A stretch of 45,635 bases of DNA. Origin: a virus (taxonomy: Duplodnaviria; Heunggongvirae; Uroviricota; Caudoviricetes). The notes beneath the pieces are model-generated. The model saw nothing but the letters and a program-made list of their open reading frames with translations. It did no database searches and was not told the origin of the DNA. The position numbers and the translations under genes are program-made. Location: IMG/VR virus record IMGVR_UViG_2671180631_000012; one strand, written 5' to 3'. Every line of letters begins with the position of its first letter. The first letter of the stretch is position 1. Of the stretch, positions 335 through 34,348 are shown one piece after another.

Positions 335-4994
<4,660 letters not shown>

Positions 4995-5054
4995 TCCTCA
5001 CGCTCCATAAACGACAAAACCGCCCGCAGGCGGTTTCTCATAAAACATTTTGCA

Positions 5055-5702
5055 TCAGCGACCAATCACCACAACCTGACCACCATCCCCTTCGTCTGCC
5101 GTGCTGATCTCCTGAGAAACCACACGTGACCCCACGCGCATTTCCCCGTACAGAACAGGCAGAACATTACCCTGGGCAACCATGTTATCCAGTGACGAGA
5201 AATACGTGTTCTGTTTGCCGTTATCTGTACTGGCTGCCGTGGGCGTCCTGGCTTTCGGTGCCAGCATCTGCGCCACACCACCCAGGATCATACTGGCCCC
5301 TGCTGCATACATACCCGATACAGCCGCGGCCCCCAGCCAGCCCACAGGGTTCCACCATGCCACCGCAATCAGCGCCGCACCCAGCACCGCCTGAAACACA
5401 CCGCCACTTTTGGCACCCGCCAGACGCGGAACGATGTGGATCACGGCACCATTTGCCAGCGGTTCATTAAGACGGGCAGATAATTCATTTTCGCCTGCAT
5501 CACGCCCGGCAATGCGCACCTGATACCAGCCGTCGCTCAGTTTCTGACGAAATGCCGGGAGCTGTGTGGCCAGTGCCCGGATGGCTTCGGCCCCCGTTTT
5601 CACACGAAGGTCGATGCGGCGGCCAAATCGCTGCAAATCCCCGTAAAGGCAGATGCGTGCCATGCCCGGTGACGCCAGAGGGAGTGTGTGCGTCGCTGCC
5701 AT
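5055..5702 (-). CDS. I: Tail assembly protein I
   Basis: 215-aa ORF beginning MAATHTLPLASPGMARICLYGDLQRFGRRIDLRVKTG, matching recalled lambda I; position between K and J. Confidence 0.85.
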   Translation of the reverse strand: MAATHTLPLASPGMARICLYGDLQRFGRRIDLRVKTGAEAIRALATQLPAFRQKLSDGWYQVRIAGRDAGENELSARLNEPLANGAVIHIVPRLAGAKSGGVFQAVLGAALIAVAWWNPVGWLGAAAVSGMYAAGASMILGGVAQMLAPKARTPTAASTDNGKQNTYFSSLDNMVAQGNVLPVLYGEMRVGSRVVSQEISTADEGDGGQVVVIGR

Positions 5703-6472
5703 TTGTCGGTATACCTCTCTCGTTTGCTCAGTTGTTCAGGAATATGGTGCAGCAGCTCGCCGTCACCACAGTAAATGGCGGCATGATTCGGCACCGATGA
5801 ACCAAAACAGCACAGCAGCACATCGCCCGGCTGCGCCGTTGACAACGGCACCTGATACAGCCCTGTAGCCTCCAGATTATCCAGATAGAGATTCTGACCA
5901 TTACGCCACCAGTCGTCCTCACGATGAAAATCTGGCATCTCAATTCCCGCCAGATGGTAAGCGTCCCGGAACAGCGTGTAACAGTCCGTCACCCCGTGCT
6001 CAAAGCGCCGCCCGGTGAGATGCGGCACACAGCGGAACTTGTGAATCGCCCCGCGGCAGACCAGCCACCACGACAAATCACTCTGCACCTGCAGCCGCCG
6101 GTCGGCCTCACTCAGCCAGGGCAGACCACCGGGGTGGCTGTGGACCAGCGCCACAATCTCACCCTGCATCTCTGCCTGCAGCCAGTCNNNNNNNNNNNNN
6201 NNNNNNNNNNNNNNNNNNNNNNNNNNNNNNNNNNNNNNNNNNNNNNNNNNNNNNNNNNNNNNNNNNNNNNNNNNNNNNNNNNNNNNNNNNNNNNNNNNNN
6301 NNNNNNNNNNNNNNNNNNNNNNNNNNNNNNNNNNNNNNNNNNNCGGCTCACCGGAAATATTCACGCAGGGAAAATATCTTTCCCCCTCCGGTGTTCTCAC
6401 CACGAAGCCGCACGACTCCGCTGGCGCACATCGCCGGGCGTGCGCCAGAATCGCTGATTCTGTCTGTGTCAT
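5600..6472 (-). CDS. K: Tail assembly protein K (JAB/MPN-like HSHP...SEAD motif plus NlpC/P60-like C-terminus); contains a scaffold gap
   Basis: ORF starts MTQTESAILAHARRCAPAESCGFVV as recalled for lambda K; HSHPGGLPWLSEAD motif present; 3' end overlaps the start of I. Confidence 0.8.
   Translation of the reverse strand: MTQTESAILAHARRCAPAESCGFVVRTPEGERYFPCVNISGEPXXXXXXXXXXXXXXXXXXXXXXXXXXXXXXXXXXXXXXXXXXXXXXXXXXXXDWLQAEMQGEIVALVHSHPGGLPWLSEADRRLQVQSDLSWWLVCRGAIHKFRCVPHLTGRRFEHGVTDCYTLFRDAYHLAGIEMPDFHREDDWWRNGQNLYLDNLEATGLYQVPLSTAQPGDVLLCCFGSSVPNHAAIYCGDGELLHHIPEQLSKRERYTDKWQRRTHSLWRHRAWHASAFTGICSDLAAASTFV
6188..6343. other. Assembly gap (156 N) inside K
   Basis: N run; translated as X residues in the K ORF. 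Confidence 0.9.
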
Positions 6473-6477
6473 GGGAT

Positions 6478-7176
6478 TTACTGCGAAAGTTTGTTAATGG
6501 AAAGGAAGCCGCCAAAGTTGCCGACGTTATTGCGAAACTTACAGCCGCTCAGGCATTTGCTGCATTTATCCTTCGTGATATCGGACGTTGGCTGGTCATA
6601 TTCATCCGCGACAGCCGGACCGTGATAACCGCACTCATCACCGCGATAGGTCCAGGTGCAGGTATTAGCAAGCATGATGCGCCCCGGAAAAACAGCGCCG
6701 TCCGTTTCCGTCGGCGTGGACAGTACAAAGGAGGCACTGACCGCGCTCAGTTCGCTGCACTGCTCAATACGCCAGCGGCTGATCACCTCCTGCTCCGGAT
6801 CGGCGTCACTGTTTCCGTTGACGAAGTTCACCGCATCCAGAAAACGGGCGTAAACCTTACGCCTGACCACCGTTCCGCCGACCAGACTCTGCAGGTCTTC
6901 CGCCATCCCGGTGACCATGCCGTGCAGATTAGAGACTTTCAGCGTTGGCCTTGCACTGGCACCTTTGCCGTTCATCTCAAATCCACTCCCCTGAATGGGA
7001 TAGGCCTGATACTGCCGACTCTGCCAGGTGACAGACTCTCCTTTCTCGTTCTGCTCATTGCAGAAAAAGTAGCGATCCCCGCCTACCTCGGTCAGGTCGA
7101 TTTCCCAGAGCACCACGCTGGCCGACTGCTCCGCACGAATGCATTCATTCAGCGTTTCCTGTTGTATGTCCTGCAT
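6478..7176 (-). CDS. L: Minor tail protein L
   Basis: 232-aa ORF with lambda-L-like length and sequence ([33 protein letters not shown]...); order H-M-L-K-I-J conserved. Confidence 0.85.
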   Translation of the reverse strand: MQDIQQETLNECIRAEQSASVVLWEIDLTEVGGDRYFFCNEQNEKGESVTWQSRQYQAYPIQGSGFEMNGKGASARPTLKVSNLHGMVTGMAEDLQSLVGGTVVRRKVYARFLDAVNFVNGNSDADPEQEVISRWRIEQCSELSAVSASFVLSTPTETDGAVFPGRIMLANTCTWTYRGDECGYHGPAVADEYDQPTSDITKDKCSKCLSGCKFRNNVGNFGGFLSINKLSQ

Positions 7177-19095: not shown

Positions 19096-20406
19096 TTAAA
19101 TCCGAAGTGATGTGACTCTTCCGGTCGGTTTGACAATAGGGAATTGCTTAACGATGAAATAACCTCCGGCATCATTCGGGTGATCATTGCCAGATTTTTT
19201 ATCAGGCTCCCCCTTCTCATCCCAGACCTGTTGCTCCAGAGATTCGGCATATAACGGGCAACGCTTCACATTAACTTTATAGCGACGCTCACCATTGGCA
19301 TTGCAGAACATTGCATTCATTGAGTTAACGCGATCTTTTACTGGCGGGTTCGAGCTGTTCACCACAACGTTAAAACCAGCCTGCTTAAGCTGGGCTATAT
19401 CCGTCGTACTTGCGTTACTTGATTTTCTGGAATCCCCGGAAGCATCTGGATAAATATAAATTTCCCTCACTTTCCGGTAATCATTCCCATCATACAGCCA
19501 GAAGCGTTCTTTAATGATGCGGATCATATCCGGCGTATCGTAGGCATTGATGATTTCAGTTACCGCACATGGAAGCCCCAAACGCAGCACATGGACGATT
19601 CCCGCCATCTTTCCAACGTTAAAATCCATCCCAATATAAATCGGCTCCCCTGGCTGCTCCACTTCTTCGCAATTATTCAGTTTCCGGTCAAACTGATGGT
19701 AAACAGTACCACTTGTCAGGTTAGTAAACTGTCCTCGAAGATAGGCTTTAATCAGCTCTGGAGGGTATGATTCAAGAAGCGAAGGAATGTAATCTGCTGG
19801 CAGGTTCTTTTCATTATCGAAAGTAGATGCCTGCACCAGACCATACAGTGAGGCCAGCTCTGTTTTTTCACGCACGGCTTTAACAAACTGCTCGTAGACA
19901 AATTTGAATCCTTCCGGCGTGGTTGTAACGTCAATACCGTTGCGAAGTCCATCAATCTTATAACGCATACGTGCAATTATCTTGCGCCACGCCGTTCTGG
20001 CTTTTTCCTTCGGCAAAATGTCCAGTTCATCCACCAACGCATTACCAATTTTGAAACCGACGATCGTTTGTGGCTTCTCCATCGATCTGCAGATAGTGGT
20101 TCCCCGATACTGGCGTCCGTAATAAAAGTGAACCTCTTTATTTCCCTCATTAATTTTTACGTTCAATCCCCAGTCAGCAGCAACTTCTTCCACTGTAGGG
20201 TAAAAAATATCGCGAATTTGGGGATACGTTGGCGCAAAATATCCCTGATTTATACCTGGATGCTCCCAAATCCCCTTGCATATGCCGCCACACCCAACCC
20301 ATGTTTTGCCCGAGCCAAAACCAGCAATATAGGCTTTAAATTTATGGGGCATTGAAAGAAATCGCGCCTGAGGCACATTAAGCGTCGGAGAGATCATCTT
20401 CATCAC
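19096..20406 (-). CDS. Terminase large subunit
   Basis: 436-aa ORF with Walker A-like GFGSGKT near the N-terminus; follows the small terminase. Confidence 0.8.
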   Translation of the reverse strand: MMKMISPTLNVPQARFLSMPHKFKAYIAGFGSGKTWVGCGGICKGIWEHPGINQGYFAPTYPQIRDIFYPTVEEVAADWGLNVKINEGNKEVHFYYGRQYRGTTICRSMEKPQTIVGFKIGNALVDELDILPKEKARTAWRKIIARMRYKIDGLRNGIDVTTTPEGFKFVYEQFVKAVREKTELASLYGLVQASTFDNEKNLPADYIPSLLESYPPELIKAYLRGQFTNLTSGTVYHQFDRKLNNCEEVEQPGEPIYIGMDFNVGKMAGIVHVLRLGLPCAVTEIINAYDTPDMIRIIKERFWLYDGNDYRKVREIYIYPDASGDSRKSSNASTTDIAQLKQAGFNVVVNSSNPPVKDRVNSMNAMFCNANGERRYKVNVKRCPLYAESLEQQVWDEKGEPDKKSGNDHPNDAGGYFIVKQFPIVKPTGRVTSLRI

Positions 20407-21475: not shown

Positions 21476-21685
21476 TTAGTCCTGATTTTTATCCACCCTG
21501 AGTAGTTCGCGCAGAGCAAAGGCATCCCCTTTTCTGGCAAGCTTAAACAATGCCGCTCGTAACTCGGCTTCACCTTTCGCTCTGCCCTTACGGATGGCCG
21601 CATAAAAATCTGTCATTGCTTCCCGATTTTCTTTCAGTCGGTTCAGATCAACATCCAGAACGTCAGCGATTTGTTGTGCAGTCAT
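21476..21685 (-). CDS. Small hypothetical phage protein
   Basis: ORF 21476-21727; start moved to the internal Met (MTAQQIADVLDV...) to avoid overlap with the upstream gene. Confidence 0.4.
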   Translation of the reverse strand: MTAQQIADVLDVDLNRLKENREAMTDFYAAIRKGRAKGEAELRAALFKLARKGDAFALRELLRVDKNQD

Positions 21686-22613
21686 CCGGCACGCTGCCAG
21701 AGACTCGACTTTCGAATACGGAATCATTTGTCACCCCCATTGATATGCAGGGTGTCTTCTTCCTGTATTTTTCGTGAAGGATTTTTACTGCAGCGTTGTT
21801 CCAGGTGACCTGATGGTGAATGCGTTTATGACTGGCACCCATAAGTGAGATTTTTACGCACGACGGCGCATACATGACGGAGTAAAAACTTTTAACGTAG
21901 GTTCCGGAATCCAGATACAGCTCGGTCATTCCGCCGCTGTTTTTCTGCGTCTGTTTCTGCCCTAACTGGACAGCACCGATCGTCATAAACAATTCACCAC
22001 AGCGACCGAGATTCGTGTACGTATTCACATCCTCGTTAATGCGCCCCATGAATGAGAACGGTCGATCAACCGAACAGATAAAGCTGTTCATTGCCTTGCG
22101 TTTCACCCACGAAGCATGGCCGCCATTGTCACCAAGAAAATCCCCGCCCTGCGACATAGCGATGGAAAGAGCAGGTATTGATTCGTAGTACGCAAGCATT
22201 TCAGAAAGGATCTCATCCAGTTTCCTTATCGGGAAATAGGCCTGGTCATAGTTGCGATCCACCCGAAACTGGAACTCGTGATAATCATCATCGAGCTGAA
22301 TGAAGTATTTACACCCGACCAGTTTTGCCTGGTCGAAACAGGCATTACGGGCGTAAAAAATTGAGCGGCGGTCACTAAAATTATCGGCTTCGTCAAAACG
22401 ACTAGCAATATCGGCTTTGGAAAATACCAGCACCTGTTCACCAAATTCAGCCATGTACTGATGCCGTGTCTTATCTTCATCATCAACAACGATAAAAATT
22501 TTCCCGGTATAGCCAGCACGACGCAACGTCCGGTAAGTCAGAACTTTGTCCGGTCGCCCGTGAGTCAGAATAAAGGCGCAAAAATCATCACGCATATTCC
22601 TCCTCCCCGCCAT
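21663..22613 (-). CDS. Uncharacterised protein with possible GT-A glycosyltransferase-like motifs
   Basis: 316 aa; N-terminus FILTHGRPDKVL...IFIVVDDED resembles the GT-A Rossmann start; a later IQLDDDY resembles a DxD motif. Overlaps the ParB-like gene by 26 nt. Confidence 0.4.
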   Translation of the reverse strand: MAGRRNMRDDFCAFILTHGRPDKVLTYRTLRRAGYTGKIFIVVDDEDKTRHQYMAEFGEQVLVFSKADIASRFDEADNFSDRRSIFYARNACFDQAKLVGCKYFIQLDDDYHEFQFRVDRNYDQAYFPIRKLDEILSEMLAYYESIPALSIAMSQGGDFLGDNGGHASWVKRKAMNSFICSVDRPFSFMGRINEDVNTYTNLGRCGELFMTIGAVQLGQKQTQKNSGGMTELYLDSGTYVKSFYSVMYAPSCVKISLMGASHKRIHHQVTWNNAAVKILHEKYRKKTPCISMGVTNDSVFESRVSGSVPDDCTTNR

Positions 22614-23376
22614 GCATGATCTCCACCATGCGCTGCGTCATTCGGACAAATCCATTTTCAATAGCCTGCTGATAATCAATGATCACCAGCGCCGACTCCT
22701 CGAAAAGGCACTGAATTTCAGCGGGGGCATGAGCGTAATAGTCCGCAATTCTGCTGAAATTAAACACCGTGTGACGTTCTGCTGCACACAGGAGGAATTT
22801 CTCAATATCAGGATCAAGGGACGCCGAACGTATCCGGCTGATCAGCTCCTGAGTTTTCGTATCGTCGTACAGTTCACTGATATCCGGTTTACCGCCTGAC
22901 GGCTCATAAACAGGCGTATCAATTTTCGTCGTATACGGCTCCTCCTCATTTCCTGTACCGGGCAAAACATCCGTCAACAGTTCATCAATTTCTGCCGGGA
23001 TGAAGCCTGTCAGGGAGACATCAAAATCAGCATTGATTAGGTCCGACAGCTCCATCCGCAACAGATCTTCATCCCAGCCAGCATTCATCGGCAGGCGATT
23101 ATCTGCCAGGCGGTACGCCTTTTTCTGCTCATCCGTCAGGCCAGACAGAACAATGACCGGAACAGAATCCATTTTGAGCATTTCAGCCGCCATAACACGA
23201 CCGTGACCCGCAATAATTTCGCCCTTTTCGTCAATCAGCACCGGATTAGTCCAGCCGAATTGCTTAATACTTTCTACCAGTTGTGCCACCTGCTCAGTAC
23301 TGTGCGTCCTGGCGTTGTGCGCATACGGTGACAATTCTTGTAATGGGCGATAGACTATCTTTAATTTCTCGCTCAT
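22588..23376 (-). CDS. ParB-like nuclease domain protein
   Basis: 262 aa; N-terminal ParB/Srx-like signature (KIVYRPLQELSPYAHNARTH...NPVLIDEKGEIIAGHGRVMAA). Confidence 0.7.
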   Translation of the reverse strand: MSEKLKIVYRPLQELSPYAHNARTHSTEQVAQLVESIKQFGWTNPVLIDEKGEIIAGHGRVMAAEMLKMDSVPVIVLSGLTDEQKKAYRLADNRLPMNAGWDEDLLRMELSDLINADFDVSLTGFIPAEIDELLTDVLPGTGNEEEPYTTKIDTPVYEPSGGKPDISELYDDTKTQELISRIRSASLDPDIEKFLLCAAERHTVFNFSRIADYYAHAPAEIQCLFEESALVIIDYQQAIENGFVRMTQRMVEIMHGGEEEYA

Positions 23377-23513
23377 ACAGCCTTGCTTTATGAATAAAAC
23401 GCACCCCAGCAGCCAGTGCTACTGGGGGCGGAGGTGTTGCTGGTAAAGTTAGGTATTGGATCAATGAGTGAGTCAACATAATATTAAACTCACAATTATA
23501 AATCAGCCATATA

Positions 23514-26533: not shown

Positions 26534-26929
26534 CTAACCTCGCATGTCAAAGCCAGATTTCTGAAAATCTCTGTAGACTTCCGGATTGTTGAAGGCCGGA
26601 AATTTGGCTTTATGAGCTGCGGACTTTATCGCTTCGCAATAGGCTTTATCACCGTTACTGGTAGATATTTTTAACGCCGTGCCATCCTGAGAGAATTCCA
26701 TATGCAACCTGCATTTTTTCCCTTTCCAGTTATGCGGCTCATCAAGTTTGGCATTAATTGCAGCTCTGATTCCCCGCGCTTGCGCCCCCCATTCATCCTG
26801 ATCATCCCAGCGTCCTGAACTGCAACTACCTGTAGCAGTAGTTTTGTGGCAATCTGAAGGGTGTAAAGGTGTGCATCCCGCAACAAAACCGACCCAAAAA
26901 GTCAACATAACGATTTTCTTTAATCCCAC
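26534..26929 (-). CDS. Lipoprotein with TolA C-terminal domain (domain III)-like region, paralog 1
   Basis: 131 aa; signal peptide with lipobox VAGC; C-terminal region shares the K.C.L......G.L......GD...C.A...A.....P....PEVY..F pattern with recalled E. coli TolA domain III; GTG start with GAGGAG SD. Confidence 0.6.
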   Translation of the reverse strand: MGLKKIVMLTFWVGFVAGCTPLHPSDCHKTTATGSCSSGRWDDQDEWGAQARGIRAAINAKLDEPHNWKGKKCRLHMEFSQDGTALKISTSNGDKAYCEAIKSAAHKAKFPAFNNPEVYRDFQKSGFDMRG

Positions 26930-27079: not shown

Positions 27080-27508
27080 TCAGGGTTTAAAATCCAGCAC
27101 CCCATTTTGAAATACTTTATATACTTCCGGCGAAGGGGGGGCAGGTATATCAGCATTCTTTATCGCATTCATCGCTTCACGACATAAATCGAGGTCTCCA
27201 CTTTCTCTTTTAACCTCCAGTAGAAGGCCATTCGGGGCCATATGCATTCTCAGTGTACACTCTTTTCCTGAATACTTACTCGCATCCCCGAACTGTTTTT
27301 CGATGGCGCTCTTGATTTGATGGGCATACAGACGGATATCCTCACTAACATCAGAAGTACGTTCAGATGAACTCACATACTGTGTCTCTATTGCTTTATC
27401 GGAGTAATATGATGTACGGTCATGATAATTTGTCGATACAGCATCAGTGCACCCGATAATAATCCCACTAATAATCAACGTAAGAATTGATGCGCTACGA
27501 AAACCCAT
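27080..27508 (-). CDS. Lipoprotein with TolA C-terminal domain (domain III)-like region, paralog 2
   Basis: 142 aa; lipobox IIGC; C-terminus YAHQIKSAIEKQFGDASKYSGKECTLRMHMAPNGLLLEVKRESGDLDLCREAMNAIKNADIPAPPSPEVYKVFQNGVLDFKP aligns closely with the recalled TolA C-terminus (YAGQIKSAIESKFYDASSYAGKTCTLRIKLAPDGMLLDIKPEGGDPALCQAALAAAKLAKIPKPPSQAVYEVFKNAPLDFKP). Confidence 0.7.
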   Translation of the reverse strand: MGFRSASILTLIISGIIIGCTDAVSTNYHDRTSYYSDKAIETQYVSSSERTSDVSEDIRLYAHQIKSAIEKQFGDASKYSGKECTLRMHMAPNGLLLEVKRESGDLDLCREAMNAIKNADIPAPPSPEVYKVFQNGVLDFKP

Positions 27509-29981: not shown

Positions 29982-30261
29982 TTCTCAATCTCTCGATGGC
30001 GCAGCGCAGCAGATGCCAGTTGTTCAGGCTGACGAATAAAGTATAAATAAACTGGCTATGGTGTAAAGCCCCACATAGCATGAACAAACACTACATATCA
30101 AATAGCTGGTACAAGGATAGAAATACGACACTTATTATTAAAAACGATTAGATAAATTACATTTTAATGTTATGCAAAAGTTCTTTTTTATCATAACATT
30201 TCAATAAAAGCATTACAGATGCAATCATCCCGTCATCATCAATTATTTAAGGTGGTTAAAC

Positions 30262-30348
30262 ATGGAAAATAACAAGTTCGCACATCTCGCTCCTTTTTTA
30301 TCCGTAATCCTTTTCGCTTGTTGTTTTATATGGGCATTATTTTTATAA
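30262..30348 (+). CDS. Candidate small hydrophobic protein (28 aa)
   Basis: Own translation MENNKFAHLAPFLSVILFACCFIWALFL; strong SD AAGGTGG 6 nt upstream of the ATG; in the AT-rich intergenic region; below the ORF-track size cutoff. Confidence 0.35.
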   Translation: MENNKFAHLAPFLSVILFACCFIWALFL

Positions 30349-30756
30349 AGTAGCCACATGATAAGTTGCTGGAATCATATTTCCCACTCAAGTCATTAAC
30401 ATTTGATAAGATATATCTAAAAGGACGCCTTTACATTATTTATGCGTATATAATTTATTTATATACACAGTAAAGGTATCCTGGGAAAATATTTATCGTT
30501 AAAAAATACATCATAAATAATTAAGCTGAAATTTCAGAACACAACTAATACACACAATAAGGTTCAGTAACAGTAATCTATGTGGACTACATCGAGATTT
30601 TTTGATTAAACTTTAATAACTTATTCCTAACACACAGAATGCATAAACTAAAAGTAAAACAAATAGTTATACGAAAAACAACCATATTTATTCTATCTTC
30701 TCCTCTAATCAACATATCAATTATGTGTTTCATAACAGCTTGACATAACCCTCCAA

Positions 30757-30779
30757 AAGATGCATTTTTAATGCATGTT
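30757..30779 (+). promoter_or_regulatory. NsrR-box-like inverted repeat overlapping the promoter of the YeaR-like gene
   Basis: AAGATGCATTT-T-TAATGCATGTT, an 11-1-11 inverted repeat close to the recalled NsrR consensus; TTGACA -35-like hexamer at 30740-30745. Confidence 0.45.
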
Positions 30780-30794
30780 TTGGAGGAGGTGGTT

Positions 30795-31133
30795 ATGACA
30801 CACAAGAGAATTCCTAAAGATTGGGTAATCAAACGCTCAACTCCGTTCTTCACAAAAGAGAACGTACCTTCAGCGTTATTAACACATCATAATACAGCAG
30901 CAGGTGTTTTTGGGCAGTTGTGCGTAATGGAAGGCACTGTAACATATTATGGTTTTACTGATGAGAATGCTACTGAACCGGAGATAAAAGTAGTCATTAA
31001 TGCTGGCGCTTTTGCAACAAGCCCACCACAATACTGGCACCGTGTTGAACTAAGCGATGATGCTCAGTTTAATATTAACTTTTGGGTCGCTCCAGACTTT
31101 TCGGGCGAAAAAGTCTATAGCACCAAAAAATAG
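30795..31133 (+). CDS. YeaR-like DUF1971 (cupin-like) protein
   Basis: ORF 30771-31133; preferred start ATG at 30795 preceded by GGAGGAGG; about 112 aa with RSTPFF...FNINFWVAP pattern recalled for the YeaR/TehB-N family; opposite strand to neighbours. Confidence 0.5.
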   Translation: MTHKRIPKDWVIKRSTPFFTKENVPSALLTHHNTAAGVFGQLCVMEGTVTYYGFTDENATEPEIKVVINAGAFATSPPQYWHRVELSDDAQFNINFWVAPDFSGEKVYSTKK

Positions 31134-31163
31134 ATGATCATATTAAAAATGCTTTAACAGTCA

Positions 31164-31199
31164 GACCCGGCAGGGCTATCCCCGACGGGTCTCATTTTT
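31164..31199 (+). terminator. Terminator-like hairpin after the YeaR-like gene
   Basis: Imperfect stem AGACCCG...CGGGTCT followed by CATTTTT, 30 nt after the stop. Confidence 0.45.
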
Positions 31200-31753
31200 G
31201 TAAATATATTGGTTCTACATTGACAGGAGACTTCAACCATAAGAAGTAATCTGAATACTTGAGCAATAAATTTACTTAAGATTAATGAGCGCACCTTGCC
31301 GGACAAAGATAAACCAAGGTAACACCTTTTTTCTAGCCAGTATGTAATCAATCAGAAAGCCGCTCCATAAGAACAACAGCAAGACAATAAATTGCCATTA
31401 CAGCCGCAATAGCCAGCGCACATTTGAGAACCAGCACGACAACCCCCTGTATTAGACGCACACCAGTCCTGATAAATATGAGGCTGTCTCGTCAGTGATT
31501 CAATACAACTATTGGGTATAGTTTCTGTGATTTTATTCTGTAGAAATGGAACACAACAACCAGTCACCACCAGCACTTCCTTAAATGCTCTAAGTCAGAA
31601 ACAAGCCAACATTTTAGTCCGCTTTGAGCGATCTGCAGACATTGCTAGCAGCCTTCTGTGTGAATTCTCAGGGAGCAGGTCGGCATAGCATCACGTTGAG
31701 GCTCTTACCCTACTTGTTCACACCAACCCTAACTCCACAGACTGATTCATAAA

Positions 31754-32755
31754 TTAGTAATCTGCGTGTTTCGCACTTTTCAGAAATGCTTTCATATTTT
31801 CATTAGGTCGCTCAATTTCGAAGTTACTTCCATATAACTCTTGTAATTTTGGCCATAACTTACTTAATAACCCTCTCCTGCGATAAAATGGATGTATCCA
31901 AACGGTAGATAGGTACGGAGAATTTGCATTTGAATTGTTTATTGTGACCAGCCCAACTAAACATTGTCGATAACCACTATTATCCATTGATTGTATTTCT
32001 TCGACGAATGGATACGCGATTACATCAGTCCAACCATGATCGGTTGTATCCCATTGCATTCCGTCATGACATTCCTTCGACTGATAGCGGCGTAAAGCTA
32101 CACACGCGAGCTTTTGCCAATCTGGAGAATTAATTGTGATCTCTTCATCGTATGACGCGCCTATTGGAGCGGGTATTGGTCTGATTAATCCAGCATGGCA
32201 TTCATCATAGAACTTCATGTTTCCCTCAGAAACGTTGTGTACGTTGGGTTGCTCCATGTGTGCGCCATTCAAAAATAGCTCTGATAGTAGTGTATCTACA
32301 CTGTAATCTTTATTGATTATTGTCGGCTTAGAGTTTTTCTTATTAAGGCCGCGAGTAACGATTTTTTGATCAATGTTAACAACATGGAATAATCCGTCGG
32401 GGAGGCTAGCGAACCACGATGGGGCATCGGACCAGAATAGCATGCCTTTTGTACTTCTTAAGAGTTTAATTAAGTTAATACAAGCTTCTTCACTAGTCTT
32501 GCCGTTGATGCGAAGTATGTTAGGACTAAAGTAATATTCATCCATATCAGGGAATGCAGCTTCGCAAAACTCCTGTACATAATTTAGCACCTGGATTCTA
32601 CAGAGATCATCATAGCTGGTAATAACTAAGGGGGTATCTTCATTACTATTATGATTATCAATAATGCAATCTATAGCGAGACTTACTGCTTTGCGTATCA
32701 CTTCAGTTGAATCTAACGACTCTAAAAATTTTGTCTTTCGTGTGCGAATATCCAT
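31754..32755 (-). CDS. Hypothetical protein with GNAT-like C-terminal motif (cargo gene B)
   Basis: 333 aa; AT-rich; C-terminal VWIHPFYRRRGLLSKLW resembles the GNAT acetyl-CoA-binding motif; start 15 nt after the gene A stop. Confidence 0.5.
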   Translation of the reverse strand: MDIRTRKTKFLESLDSTEVIRKAVSLAIDCIIDNHNSNEDTPLVITSYDDLCRIQVLNYVQEFCEAAFPDMDEYYFSPNILRINGKTSEEACINLIKLLRSTKGMLFWSDAPSWFASLPDGLFHVVNIDQKIVTRGLNKKNSKPTIINKDYSVDTLLSELFLNGAHMEQPNVHNVSEGNMKFYDECHAGLIRPIPAPIGASYDEEITINSPDWQKLACVALRRYQSKECHDGMQWDTTDHGWTDVIAYPFVEEIQSMDNSGYRQCLVGLVTINNSNANSPYLSTVWIHPFYRRRGLLSKLWPKLQELYGSNFEIERPNENMKAFLKSAKHADY

Positions 32756-32770
32756 GTATGACCTGCGCTA

Positions 32771-33793
32771 TTAAAATTCATGAATGAACGGTTTGTCATC
32801 TGGTTGCAAAATGGTGGTTTTATTCGTTGCTACATTTAAACTGTTGTAGAGCATAATTGCCAGGTTCGATGCATTTTCAATCAGCGTTTCAAGATCCTGG
32901 TCTGTAATCACTACGAGGTTCCCTTCTTTATCCTTTCCACCACGATGCACTAAGTGATTTCGATTGAGGGTTGCCAATTCAATAGCTTCTATCGGACAGT
33001 CTTTTTGTACTTTTATATCGAATGTAGCTTCATAGCGGTCGATTACCTTTTTAGTGCTATGCCAGCTTGCACTGATCAAGTGTTCCTTGATTGACCTGAT
33101 TAGCTCTCCCCTAATTTTCTCGATGGGTTCACCCTTGAAAGGCAACGCAGCAATATCTTTGCTTACTTTAAATTCAGTCTTACCTTTTTCTATACAATTG
33201 GCTATGTAGACATCATCTTTCTCTATAGAATTAATGAATAGCTCAACATAAAGCGTTTCCAAAGCTGTAATAACATTCGTGTAGAGCAAACTAAGCAAGT
33301 GGTTTTTTTGCTGTTGTTCAGTTTTATCTTTTGCAAGTTTTTTTATTTTATCGATATTATCAATGAATTTTAAATACGGATTACCGGAAGACGTTACAGC
33401 GTCGTAGATATCATCATCGTACCAATCATCTATATTATTTGAGTTTCCAGACCAGTCAAAACATTGTGTTTGTAATTCATCTACTAATTCCTCAATATAC
33501 TCAGATTTAACATATTGACCGAAGATGGATTGTAGTTCTTCGCTCGCATCATACGGCCCGCCATATATGTAAGCATAGCCACCTTCTCTACTTTCATACG
33601 GACAAGCATTTGCCGGATCTTCAAAGTTTTCAAAGAACCAGTTTTTCATTACTTCGAGTTGATCTTTTTTGCTTATGTATTTTAAAGATTTTAGTGGAAC
33701 TTTCTTTCCATTAACCTCGAAAACAATTTTCACGATGTAACGCTCCCTTGTATCAATTGCGCAACTATTATACCACAGCGAAATACAGGGCAT
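32771..33793 (-). CDS. Hypothetical protein with C-terminal HEPN-like Rx4H motif (cargo gene A)
   Basis: ORF 32771-33862; preferred start MPCISLWYN at 33793 with perfect SD GGAGG 7 nt upstream; AT-rich; motif LNRNHLVHRGG encoded at 32945-32962. Confidence 0.5.
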   Translation of the reverse strand: MPCISLWYNSCAIDTRERYIVKIVFEVNGKKVPLKSLKYISKKDQLEVMKNWFFENFEDPANACPYESREGGYAYIYGGPYDASEELQSIFGQYVKSEYIEELVDELQTQCFDWSGNSNNIDDWYDDDIYDAVTSSGNPYLKFIDNIDKIKKLAKDKTEQQQKNHLLSLLYTNVITALETLYVELFINSIEKDDVYIANCIEKGKTEFKVSKDIAALPFKGEPIEKIRGELIRSIKEHLISASWHSTKKVIDRYEATFDIKVQKDCPIEAIELATLNRNHLVHRGGKDKEGNLVVITDQDLETLIENASNLAIMLYNSLNVATNKTTILQPDDKPFIHEF

Positions 33794-33931
33794 AACCTGC
33801 CTCCTTAAACTAACATACCATGAGCCAGCAATGTCCGCTATTGGCACAAAGCGGACAACCACGCTAGCTCTCCCCTGTGCCAGAAAAATGTCAATTTACA
33901 TATGAACTAATGCTCTTTGATCTAGTAACGT

Positions 33932-34348
33932 CTATAAATACCGAAGATTTCCTTGATAAAATGCCAGTACACGTTTCATAACTTCACTCTTCCGGCACTC
34001 GCGACAGATTATGTTCTGACGCCTGTCATAGCGGCGTATTTCTCCGTCTGGTAATGACCAGATAAGGTCAGGATCAACCACAACCGTTTTTTTCACCTTT
34101 GCCCTGGATAGTTTTTTGCGGGCGTTTTTCCAATCCTTACGAGCCTGTTCAGACGGGAATAACCCATAGCCAGAGTTGTATACATCGCCACTGGCAACCA
34201 ACTCTCTGGCAAGAATGCTCATCAGATATCTTGTCGCACCTGTCTTGGCCTCCAGTTGCCTTAACGTCTCGCGCCCACTCTGGCGTACCAACTCAACAAC
34301 CTGCTCCTTAATTTTTTCACGCTCTTCCTGTGTAAAAACTTTTGCCAT
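33932..34348 (-). CDS. Hypothetical phage early protein
   Basis: ORF 33932-34363; preferred start MAKVFTQEEREK at 34348 with GGAGG SD. Confidence 0.45.
   Translation of the reverse strand: MAKVFTQEEREKIKEQVVELVRQSGRETLRQLEAKTGATRYLMSILARELVASGDVYNSGYGLFPSEQARKDWKNARKKLSRAKVKKTVVVDPDLIWSLPDGEIRRYDRRQNIICRECRKSEVMKRVLAFYQGNLRYL

Follow-up and report, generated by a model that had tools for sequence, protein, structure and literature searches.

The 45,635-nucleotide stretch of DNA analysed here (the window) is IMG/VR virus record IMGVR_UViG_2671180631_000012 (Caudoviricetes), an E. coli prophage of the lambdoid Rac type whose late genes run on the minus strand. Two overlapping genes of this prophage, ynaK, encoding a 262-amino-acid (aa) ParB-like protein, and the adjoining downstream gene, encoding a glycosyltransferase of the TAGT family, were found to recur together in phages of many hosts. 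The reading we favour, held at about even confidence, is that the pair forms a translationally coupled, two-component, post-replicative DNA glycosyltransferase whose adaptor couples the enzyme to a DNA clamp. The comparisons below suggest an uncharacterised DNA-glycosylation module that would not depend on the enzymes that usually supply a hydroxymethyl-base precursor. DNA modification by the pair is inferred from protein family and gene neighbourhood; inference also covers DNA as the acceptor, activation or tethering of the enzyme by its partner, and a clamp role of the ParB domain.

Both open reading frames (ORFs) of the initial annotation were recovered on the minus strand, at 22588..23376 (262 aa) and 21663..22613 (316 aa), and the motifs quoted there were present in the second translation (FILTHGRPD at residues 14-22, IFIVVDDED at 39-47 and IQLDDDY at 105-111). 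Its tentative GT-A assignment proved correct and can be refined: by profile comparison the transferase belongs to the TAGT/JGT/GREB1-related family PF20691 with a GT-A fold. The protein matched PF20691 (TAGT) in Pfam at 118.8 bits (cutoff 27.5, E=4.1e-34) over profile positions 4-205 of 205, and the same annotation was precomputed on all homologues listed. Phage-encoded like other members, it combines this full-domain match and the GT-A fold with a DxD motif and the R...DDD...ED[Y/F] motifs reported for the GT-A DNA glycosyltransferases of phages (bioRxiv 10.1101/2023.12.21.572611). Residues D108-D110 (QLDDDY) were invariant in a five-phage and a 22-sequence alignment and are taken to be the functional DxD, rather than the earlier VVDDED, of which only D47 was invariant in the distant five-phage set. 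R20, D195, H266-H267 and W271 were also invariant in the alignments, and the C-terminal region at residues 229-290 is basic and highly conserved. Identity within the clade is 40-59% across phyla and 23% to a T4-like member, the homologue of Aeromonas phage 65, with which a conserved W-x-HH region is shared. A PDB sequence search with the transferase profile gave no match, NCBIfam held no model matching it, and a Pfam scan, which did not include transmembrane prediction, returned no domain beyond TAGT. The enzyme is mildly basic (isoelectric point (pI) 8.3; homologue median 8.9) whereas YnaK, at pI 4.5 and a net charge of about -24, is strongly acidic (partner median pI 4.7), and this opposition of a basic enzyme and an acidic partner supports the favoured reading.

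The distribution of the pair was determined with hidden Markov models built from five-phage alignments of both proteins and run on IMG/VR and GTDB sets. This gave 88 phage and IMG/VR loci (80 of them from IMG/VR) and 80 loci from one-genome-per-species GTDB representatives, whose hosts were Enterobacteria, Bacteroidota, Firmicutes, Desulfobacterota, Chlorobi, Planctomycetes, Verrucomicrobia, Spirochaetes, Saccharibacteria, Actinobacteria, Alphaproteobacteria and an archaeon. Co-occurrence, which the initial annotation had proposed as a check, was borne out across phyla: in all 88 loci of the first set and 77/80 of the second the transferase was preceded on its own strand by the partner, the three exceptions being transferases at a contig edge. 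Within the first set the partner was directly adjacent in 87 of the 88 loci; in the remaining one, L083, it lay 3 kb upstream. Overall, about 165 loci, covering more than 15 bacterial phyla and haloarchaeal viruses, carried the pair, with the two genes directly adjacent in all but about six. The reverse association also held, as 28/28 phage records with the C-terminal domain of the partner contained the transferase, and three of three stand-alone C-domain proteins from metagenome contigs directly preceded a PF20691 gene. On these counts the pairing is judged to be far beyond chance, reciprocal and near-obligate, and it ranks among the tightest two-gene associations in phage genomes.

A tblastn search against phage records showed that widely differing hosts have phages encoding the transferase at 40-46% identity: those of Lactobacillus gasseri, L. 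delbrueckii, Nocardia and Vibrio (190-kb lytic phages), a human-gut phage and haloarchaeal virus HHTV-2. In Porphyromonas phages the identity was 27%. In phi jlb1, c5, NTR1, HHTV-2 and a Porphyromonas phage the order is ParB-like gene, overlapping transferase, terminase, and both proteins of these five phages align full-length to the window proteins at 34-48% identity. The T4-like TAGT of Aeromonas phage 65 has no C-domain partner, and its N-terminal extension was checked as a possible fused C-domain and ruled out. Because this T4-like member lacks the partner, which is always present in the clade described here, the partner defines a distinct TAGT clade.

The transferase start bears on the coupling of the two genes. 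The initial annotation had described an overlapping protein of 316 aa; the overlap is real, but the protein is likely to be 310 aa long, with an overlap of 8 nt instead of 26 nt. The longest ORF is the 316-aa frame, and the ATG at 22595, which yields 310 aa, is probably the real start because GGAGGAGG precedes it (22599-22606) and homologues begin at MRDDFCAF, the RefSeq start being cited as well. From this ATG the transferase and the ynaK stop overlap by 8 nt (ATGCGTGA), which we read as a signature of translational coupling; overlaps of 3-43 nt are usual in related loci. The 2.2-kb stretch is near-identical (at least 80% covered) in 867/5426 complete E. coli genomes and is also present in ten induced-prophage phage records.

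Two side observations concern the distribution. In L. delbrueckii phages KJ564037 (Ld17), AY739900 (LL-Ku), KJ564036 (Ld25A) and KF188410 (phiLdb) the transferase is in two pieces or a short remnant, and the module appears to be decaying in this lineage. A full ParB-partner and transferase pair is carried by locus L107 (NZ_CP097348.1, Virgibacillus 'plasmid' pCBA3643-01, 49,973 bp), a record that may be a phage-plasmid or a circularised prophage.

YnaK consists of three parts: a ParB_N domain (residue 1 to about 135), a stretch (136-170) that is unstructured in the AlphaFold2 (AF2) model, with a predicted local distance difference test (pLDDT) score below 50 as if disordered, and a helical domain (172 to about 258). 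Both proteins were modelled with AF2 from shallow alignments (22 sequences, mostly enterobacterial). In a comparison of 227 partner proteins, conservation was far higher in the C-terminal part than in the ParB part. The linker carries the motif Y-[TS]-x-K-[IV]-x-x-P-x-Y-E-P-x-G-x-K-P, in which Y148 (223/223), P155 (222/225), Y157 (224/225) and P164 (215/225) stand out; in the C-domain R201 (227/227) and D234 (226/226) are invariant, and H202, A211, Y214, Q222, E226 and G242 nearly so. The C-domain profile matched 1195 clusters at 50% identity (E<=1e-3). When seven divergent C-domains were compared with Pfam at E<=10, only one weak recurrent family came up, PF23887 (mycobacteriophage L5 gp47-like, E 0.03-0.08), which was set aside as uninformative, and a PDB search with the C-domain profile found only insignificant helical-repeat similarity. 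By these comparisons the C-terminal domain (about 115 aa) is new, very conserved and without a Pfam family. At least nine loci (including L006, L099, L113, L119, L120, L138, L153, L155 and L168) encode it free-standing, as a protein of 130-155 aa that lacks a ParB domain; across all cases of the domain alone beside TAGT the length is 125-155 aa, and many such stand-alone proteins occur in metagenomes. Since ParB_N is missing in these loci and the C-domain and transferase stay, the constant partner of the transferase is taken to be the C-terminal domain of the 262-aa protein and not its ParB domain.

The N-terminal part was described initially as a ParB/Srx-type domain, and this was upheld. YnaK exceeded the threshold of Pfam ParB_N (PF02195) narrowly (29.3 bits, cutoff 26.3, E=8.7e-7) and matched phrog_620 end to end (E=1.7e-90); the domain retrieved Noc and ParB-CDP structures with Foldseek (E about 1e-6) and Noc/ParB in a PDB profile search (E about 2e-5). 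Its closest relatives were the ParB parts of DNA methyltransferase fusions (phrog_498, E=6e-51; PADLOC MTase_II, E=1.5e-38). A Box II-like AGHGR (G57, R60) and a Box III-like DN (D92, N93) are present, and conservation across 227 homologues was 98% for G57, 83% for R60 and 91% for N93. The domain is thus classed as a ParB/Srx nucleoside triphosphate (NTP)-binding fold and a predicted nucleotide binder. The label 'nuclease' found no support: the fold is near that of CTP-binding ParB/Noc, and no nuclease family was matched by the partner in Pfam and NCBIfam scans. We take 'ParB-like nuclease' to be an old name of the ParB_N Pfam family.

The gene neighbourhood differs with the form of the partner. 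Where it is fused to ParB_N, the pair lies between recombination or replication genes (RusA, SSB, N6/N4 DNA methylase) and packaging genes. Where ParB_N is missing, the pair is inside replication modules (PolA, primase-helicase, DnaB, SSB, RecT), with a family A DNA polymerase immediately upstream in L120, a primase-helicase in L113, DnaB in L168 and L173, and a helicase and a primase in L174. A beta-sliding-clamp (DnaN-like) gene, recognised by the Pfam DNA_pol3_beta N and C domains, adjoins the pair in L119 (5114-6196), L120 (6886-7977) and L155 (7083-8168), and a weaker clamp homologue (E=1e-7, no Pfam match) in L168 (3836-4930); none of the loci with a ParB_N-fused partner had an adjacent beta clamp. 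Because the beta clamp was seen only beside partners without ParB_N, the arrangement suggests that the ParB-type clamp and the replicative clamp are alternative tethers of the transferase on DNA.

One family of S-adenosylmethionine-dependent methyltransferases (Methyltransf_23-like, mutual E 1e-42 to 1e-53) is attached to the pair in three arrangements: fused to the transferase C-terminus (L083 6007-7725 and L150 3581-5275), fused to the N-terminus of the ParB partner (L118 189-1739), and as a free gene between partner and transferase (L153 5159-5995). This suggests that the methyltransferase acts on the same product, for example by methylating a sugar O. A second, diverged tandem TAGT was present in five loci (L119, L145, L150, L155 and L161), and L155 holds two complete partner-transferase pairs (4472-5615 and 5618-6918). 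Tandem copies would be expected for stepwise glycan building, and together with the methyltransferase links they form the pattern expected of a multi-step modification pathway on one substrate.

Two further genes near stand-alone pairs were recorded. Directly downstream of the pair in L168 (6229-8317) is a 696-aa protein with a pyridoxal phosphate-dependent Orn/Arg-decarboxylase domain, which recalls DNA hypermodification pathways of the polyamine type. In L171 (8437-9165) and L172 (7555-8283) a 242-aa protein with a weak Acb2/Tad1-hairpin Pfam match, encoded some 5 kb downstream of the pair, may be a relative of anti-CBASS/Thoeris sponges.

Under the favoured reading, the module would act on phage DNA late in infection. 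The GT-A enzyme would move a sugar from a nucleotide-sugar donor, and the acidic partner would bind and activate it through the invariant C-terminal domain and linker motif, with the ParB-CTPase-fold N-domain, in the role of an NTP-gated clamp or loader, keeping the complex on double-stranded DNA. For partners without a ParB domain the replisome would take the tethering role, some of these loci encoding a beta sliding clamp next door. A narrower version, in which the sugar is put directly on canonical phage DNA or DNA ends, sparsely or sequence-specifically, and the C-domain is a dedicated adaptor to either of two unrelated clamps, ParB-CTPase or beta, is held only tentatively.

The closest mechanistic precedent, by analogy, is given by the ParB-dependent thymine dioxygenases, a subclass of which needs a cognate ParB-like activator for action on double-stranded DNA; this activator is laid out as a nucleotide-binding domain, an unstructured linker and a C-terminal domain, with no helix-turn-helix (HTH) domain (PMC13229309). 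As in 5mYOX176/ParB176, a cognate ParB-like gene is consistently adjacent to the gene of the (here putative) DNA-modifying enzyme. YnaK is likewise predicted to have an NTP-binding domain, linker and C-terminal domain and no HTH, the model of its C-domain being of low confidence, and NTP-binding residues are conserved in its family. The systems differ in that the enzyme is a glycosyltransferase here and a dioxygenase there, and in that conservation within YnaK is far higher in the C-domain and linker than in the ParB domain, the C-domain also existing on its own. The ParB_N-DNA methyltransferase fusions nearest to the N-domain of YnaK (phrog_498, PADLOC MTase_II, PMC12704722) share the niche of the pair, being found in prophages upstream of terminase. 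There the effector is covalently fused, whereas here a separate transferase would be joined through an adaptor domain. The catalogue of phage ParB-fold/methyltransferase fusions, in which such folds bind CTP, ATP or GTP, leaves glycosyltransferases unmentioned (PMC12704722). Two further DNA-modifying enzymes depend on a clamp or ParB-like NTPase for duplex DNA, T4 alpha-glucosyltransferase and DpdA; their folds and chemistry are different, and the likeness to the present pair is one of logic only, the partners being unrelated in sequence. DpdB is reportedly a ParB-like ATPase that works with the DNA transglycosylase DpdA. T4 alpha-glucosyltransferase associates with the replisome according to work cited in PMC13216743.

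Several observations weigh against the favoured reading. The partner is acidic including its ParB domain (pI 4.7), an unusual property in a DNA-binding clamp; Pfam gave no HTH DNA-binding domain for it, and the Box II arginine is absent in some members, such as that of Nocardia phage NTR1. The link to the beta clamp amounts to about two independent lineages, L119, L120 and L155 being close relatives and the L168 match weak. The AF2 models are poor for the C-terminal 90 residues of the transferase and for the C-domain of the partner (pLDDT below 50 in both). The animal relative GREB1 is a protein O-GlcNAc (O-linked N-acetylglucosamine) transferase and does not act on DNA (PMC7968844), and literature searches gave no experimental DNA-modification data for any phage carrying the pair. 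Further objections concern the acceptor. RefSeq annotation and Pfam scans of unannotated early genes revealed no TET/JBP, TET/5mYOX, C5-cytosine methyltransferase, thymidylate-synthase-like hydroxymethylase or alpha/beta-glucosyltransferase in the prophage, and the same precursor enzymes are absent from the complete 31.8-kb phage c5. The pair is therefore, in the prophage and c5, dissociated from a source of hydroxymethyl-pyrimidine or glucosyl-hydroxymethylcytosine, a contextual feature from which the family takes its name and not one on which sequence membership depends. We know of no precedent for glycosylation of canonical DNA.

Characterised PF20691 members that act on DNA are the T2/T6 beta-glucosyl-HMC-alpha-glucosyltransferase (PMC13216743; PMC13390438) and the TET-associated phage GT-A enzymes and, more distantly related, trypanosome JGT (bioRxiv 10.1101/2023.12.21.572611). 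The known DNA acceptors of the family are 5-hydroxymethylcytosine (5hmC), glucosyl-5hmC and 5-hydroxymethyluracil (5hmU) (PMC13390438, PMC13216743, bioRxiv 10.1101/2023.12.21.572611), all of which are missing here because the precursor enzymes are absent. Since no enzyme generating a hydroxymethyl-pyrimidine is encoded, the acceptor is probably neither 5hmC nor 5hmU, and for the same reason the 'TET-associated' enzyme is not TET-associated in this clade. TAGT was reportedly defined by Iyer et al. 2013, whose statements are given here as quoted by PMC13229309. A 2026 survey counted 'solitary' TAGT homologues with undefined function in 288 of 753 TAGT-carrying phage genomes (PMC13216743), and the present clade corresponds to these 'solitary TAGT homologs'. 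The preprint of Pyle et al. noted, without analysis, that GT-A matches often neighbour ParB-like and terminase genes, and found about 65% of transferase contigs to have no recognised base-modification enzyme nearby (bioRxiv 10.1101/2023.12.21.572611). Literature searches found no functional study characterising the pair.

The main rival to DNA as the acceptor is protein glycosylation, which we consider unlikely but ahead of the remaining alternatives. The acceptor would most simply be the Tyr/Thr linker motif of the partner (Y148-T149...Y157), in the manner of glycogenin self-glucosylation, GREB1 O-GlcNAcylation or the action of SunS on a neighbouring gene product. The missing-acceptor problem would then disappear, the motif is essentially invariant and modelled as disordered, enzyme-substrate pairs typically have an obligate adjacent gene, and GREB1 itself modifies protein. 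However, the helical core of the C-domain (R201, H202, E226, D234) is equally invariant and would be needless in an acceptor peptide, and no function is evident for a glycosylated ParB-like protein. The ParB fusion, the methyltransferase fusions, the clamp and replisome neighbours and the tandem transferases with one partner would also be left unexplained.

It is distinctly less probable that the pair serves anti-defence or exclusion, with host or competitor DNA (for superinfection exclusion by a prophage), a nucleotide immune signal or a host defence protein as the target, to which, or to the nucleotide, the ParB/Srx domain would bind. Action of prophage-encoded transferases on incoming DNA has been proposed (bioRxiv 10.1101/2023.12.21.572611), ParB/Srx folds bind ATP, CTP or GTP (PMC12704722), and the module is very widespread on mobile elements without an obvious essential role. 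Against this, the genes occupy the late operon directly upstream of terminase, or the replication modules of lytic phages, and not early, lysogenic or moron positions, a PADLOC scan matched the transferase to no defence system, and prophage exclusion would make no sense in lytic jumbo phages.

A packaging or partition accessory, in which the ParB-like protein would mark pac or cos, help the terminase small subunit (TerS) as HNH proteins beside terminases do, or partition the genome, with the transferase as a passenger, is very unlikely. It draws on the database label 'partition protein' and on the location upstream of terminase, which had been pointed out initially and was found to be conserved in most temperate-phage loci: the terminase large subunit (TerL) was at most 2.5 kb downstream in at least 54 of the 80 loci with enough downstream sequence. 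The terminases in question are of at least four unrelated types (Terminase_6N, TerL_ATPase, GpA and others) from both cos and pac phages, and the lytic phages argue against a packaging-specific role, as they carry the pair far from terminase in replication modules; in Vibrio phages it lies among primase, exonuclease and helicase genes with no terminase nearby. The part that is always kept is the C-domain with the transferase and not ParB_N, and such strict pairing contradicts a 'passenger' transferase. With partition ParB (Spo0J, P1 ParB) and Noc the N-domain shares the ParB-CTPase fold, but YnaK has no HTH or parS-binding domain, is acidic and is encoded in a late operon; it scored 38.1 bits against the TIGR00180 cutoff of 58.45, and no ParA was present in the RefSeq annotation of the identical prophage. 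Gtr-like surface conversion, glucosylating O-antigen or teichoic acid (compare TarP), was rejected on gene context and is scarcely credible, as RefSeq annotation gave no flippase or membrane partner gene nearby, the genes lie in a late operon or replication module, and the pair is shared by archaeal viruses and lytic jumbo phages, whose envelopes are quite unlike.

The pair is new as a combination of two known kinds of system, TAGT enzymes and ParB-assisted DNA modification. TAGT-type transferases have so far been understood only as finishing enzymes on 5hmC or 5hmU, and one precursor-less clade is seen here not to be solitary, having an obligate conserved partner domain that is often fused to a ParB-CTPase and otherwise lies in the replisome gene set. 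By analogy, ParB-like activation of DNA-modifying enzymes would be extended from dioxygenases to glycosyltransferases. If the narrower version with canonical DNA as the acceptor is true, the temperate phages in about one sixth of complete E. coli genomes, and viruses of many bacterial phyla and haloarchaea, would carry a previously unknown class of DNA glycosylation. An unmodified DNA acceptor would add new chemistry to the phage anti-restriction repertoire and could affect sequencing and modification calling for temperate phages. The two genes offer a construct for testing new DNA (or protein) glycosylation, in a prophage of genetically tractable E. coli.

Table 1. Features of the ynaK-transferase region, in window coordinates
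Feature	Position	Strand	Basis or remark
Holin, lysozyme, Rz	26339-25109	-	
trkG	24989-23514	-	between lysis cassette and ynaK
Terminator-like hairpin between trkG and ynaK	23404..23427	-	10-bp stem, 7 G-C pairs, T-rich tail
ynaK-type ParB-like gene, 262 aa	22588..23376	-	ORF; RefSeq name ynaK
Predicted ParB/Srx (ParB-CTPase fold) N-domain, residues 1 to about 135	22972..23376	-	Pfam ParB_N = residues 23-90
Linear linker motif, residues 145-171	22864..22944	-	conservation in partner proteins
Helical core of partner C-terminal domain, residues 172-258	22603..22863	-	near-invariant residues, no Pfam family
Putative coupling junction	22588..22606	-	Shine-Dalgarno GGAGGAGG 22599-22606, transferase ATG 22593-22595, ynaK stop TGA 22588-22590
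TAGT-family GT-A glycosyltransferase	21663..22595	-	RefSeq name 'GREB1-related protein'; 310 aa from the likely start, 316 aa from the ATG at 22613
DxD motif D108-D109-D110 of QLDDDY (316-aa numbering), predicted metal/nucleotide-sugar binding	22284..22292	-	invariant in alignments
HTH ORF, 83 aa	21476-21727	-	overlaps transferase 3' end
Terminase small subunit, 364 aa	20378-21472	-	Pfam/phrog: Terminase_2, phrog_309, phrog_51 listed for terminase region
Terminase large subunit	19096-20406	-	Terminase_6N/6C; then portal

In a 100%-identical genome (L001 21189-21977) RefSeq/PGAP calls the intact 262-aa ynaK ORF an 86-codon pseudogene with a 'missing C-terminus'. This seems to be an artefact of annotation, by which the conserved C-domain is concealed, and it probably arose because the K-12 reference ynaK is, as we presume, a truncated remnant. 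The 83-aa ORF, which precedes the 364-aa TerS, matches the middle of phrog_309 'terminase small subunit' (E=8e-23) and may be a split or accessory TerS DNA-binding module.

Upstream of ynaK, trkG encodes a potassium transporter of the TrkH family (E=1e-144) in a region with a G+C content of 0.38-0.43. The lower G+C and the terminator-like hairpin of its own mark it, on sequence features, as a classic moron inserted in the late operon, and it is regarded as context outside the module. A low-G+C island (0.32-0.41) in the early region at 30000-34000 contains genes at 31754-32755 and 32771-33862, whose products (333 and 363 aa) gave weak GNAT and HEPN/RES-NTD1 matches and no PADLOC match; the island could be uncharacterised accessory or defence cargo. 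Two adjoining genes at 26534-26929 and 27080-27508, upstream of the lysis genes, encode proteins with TolA C-terminal domains (E=1e-14 and 2e-23).

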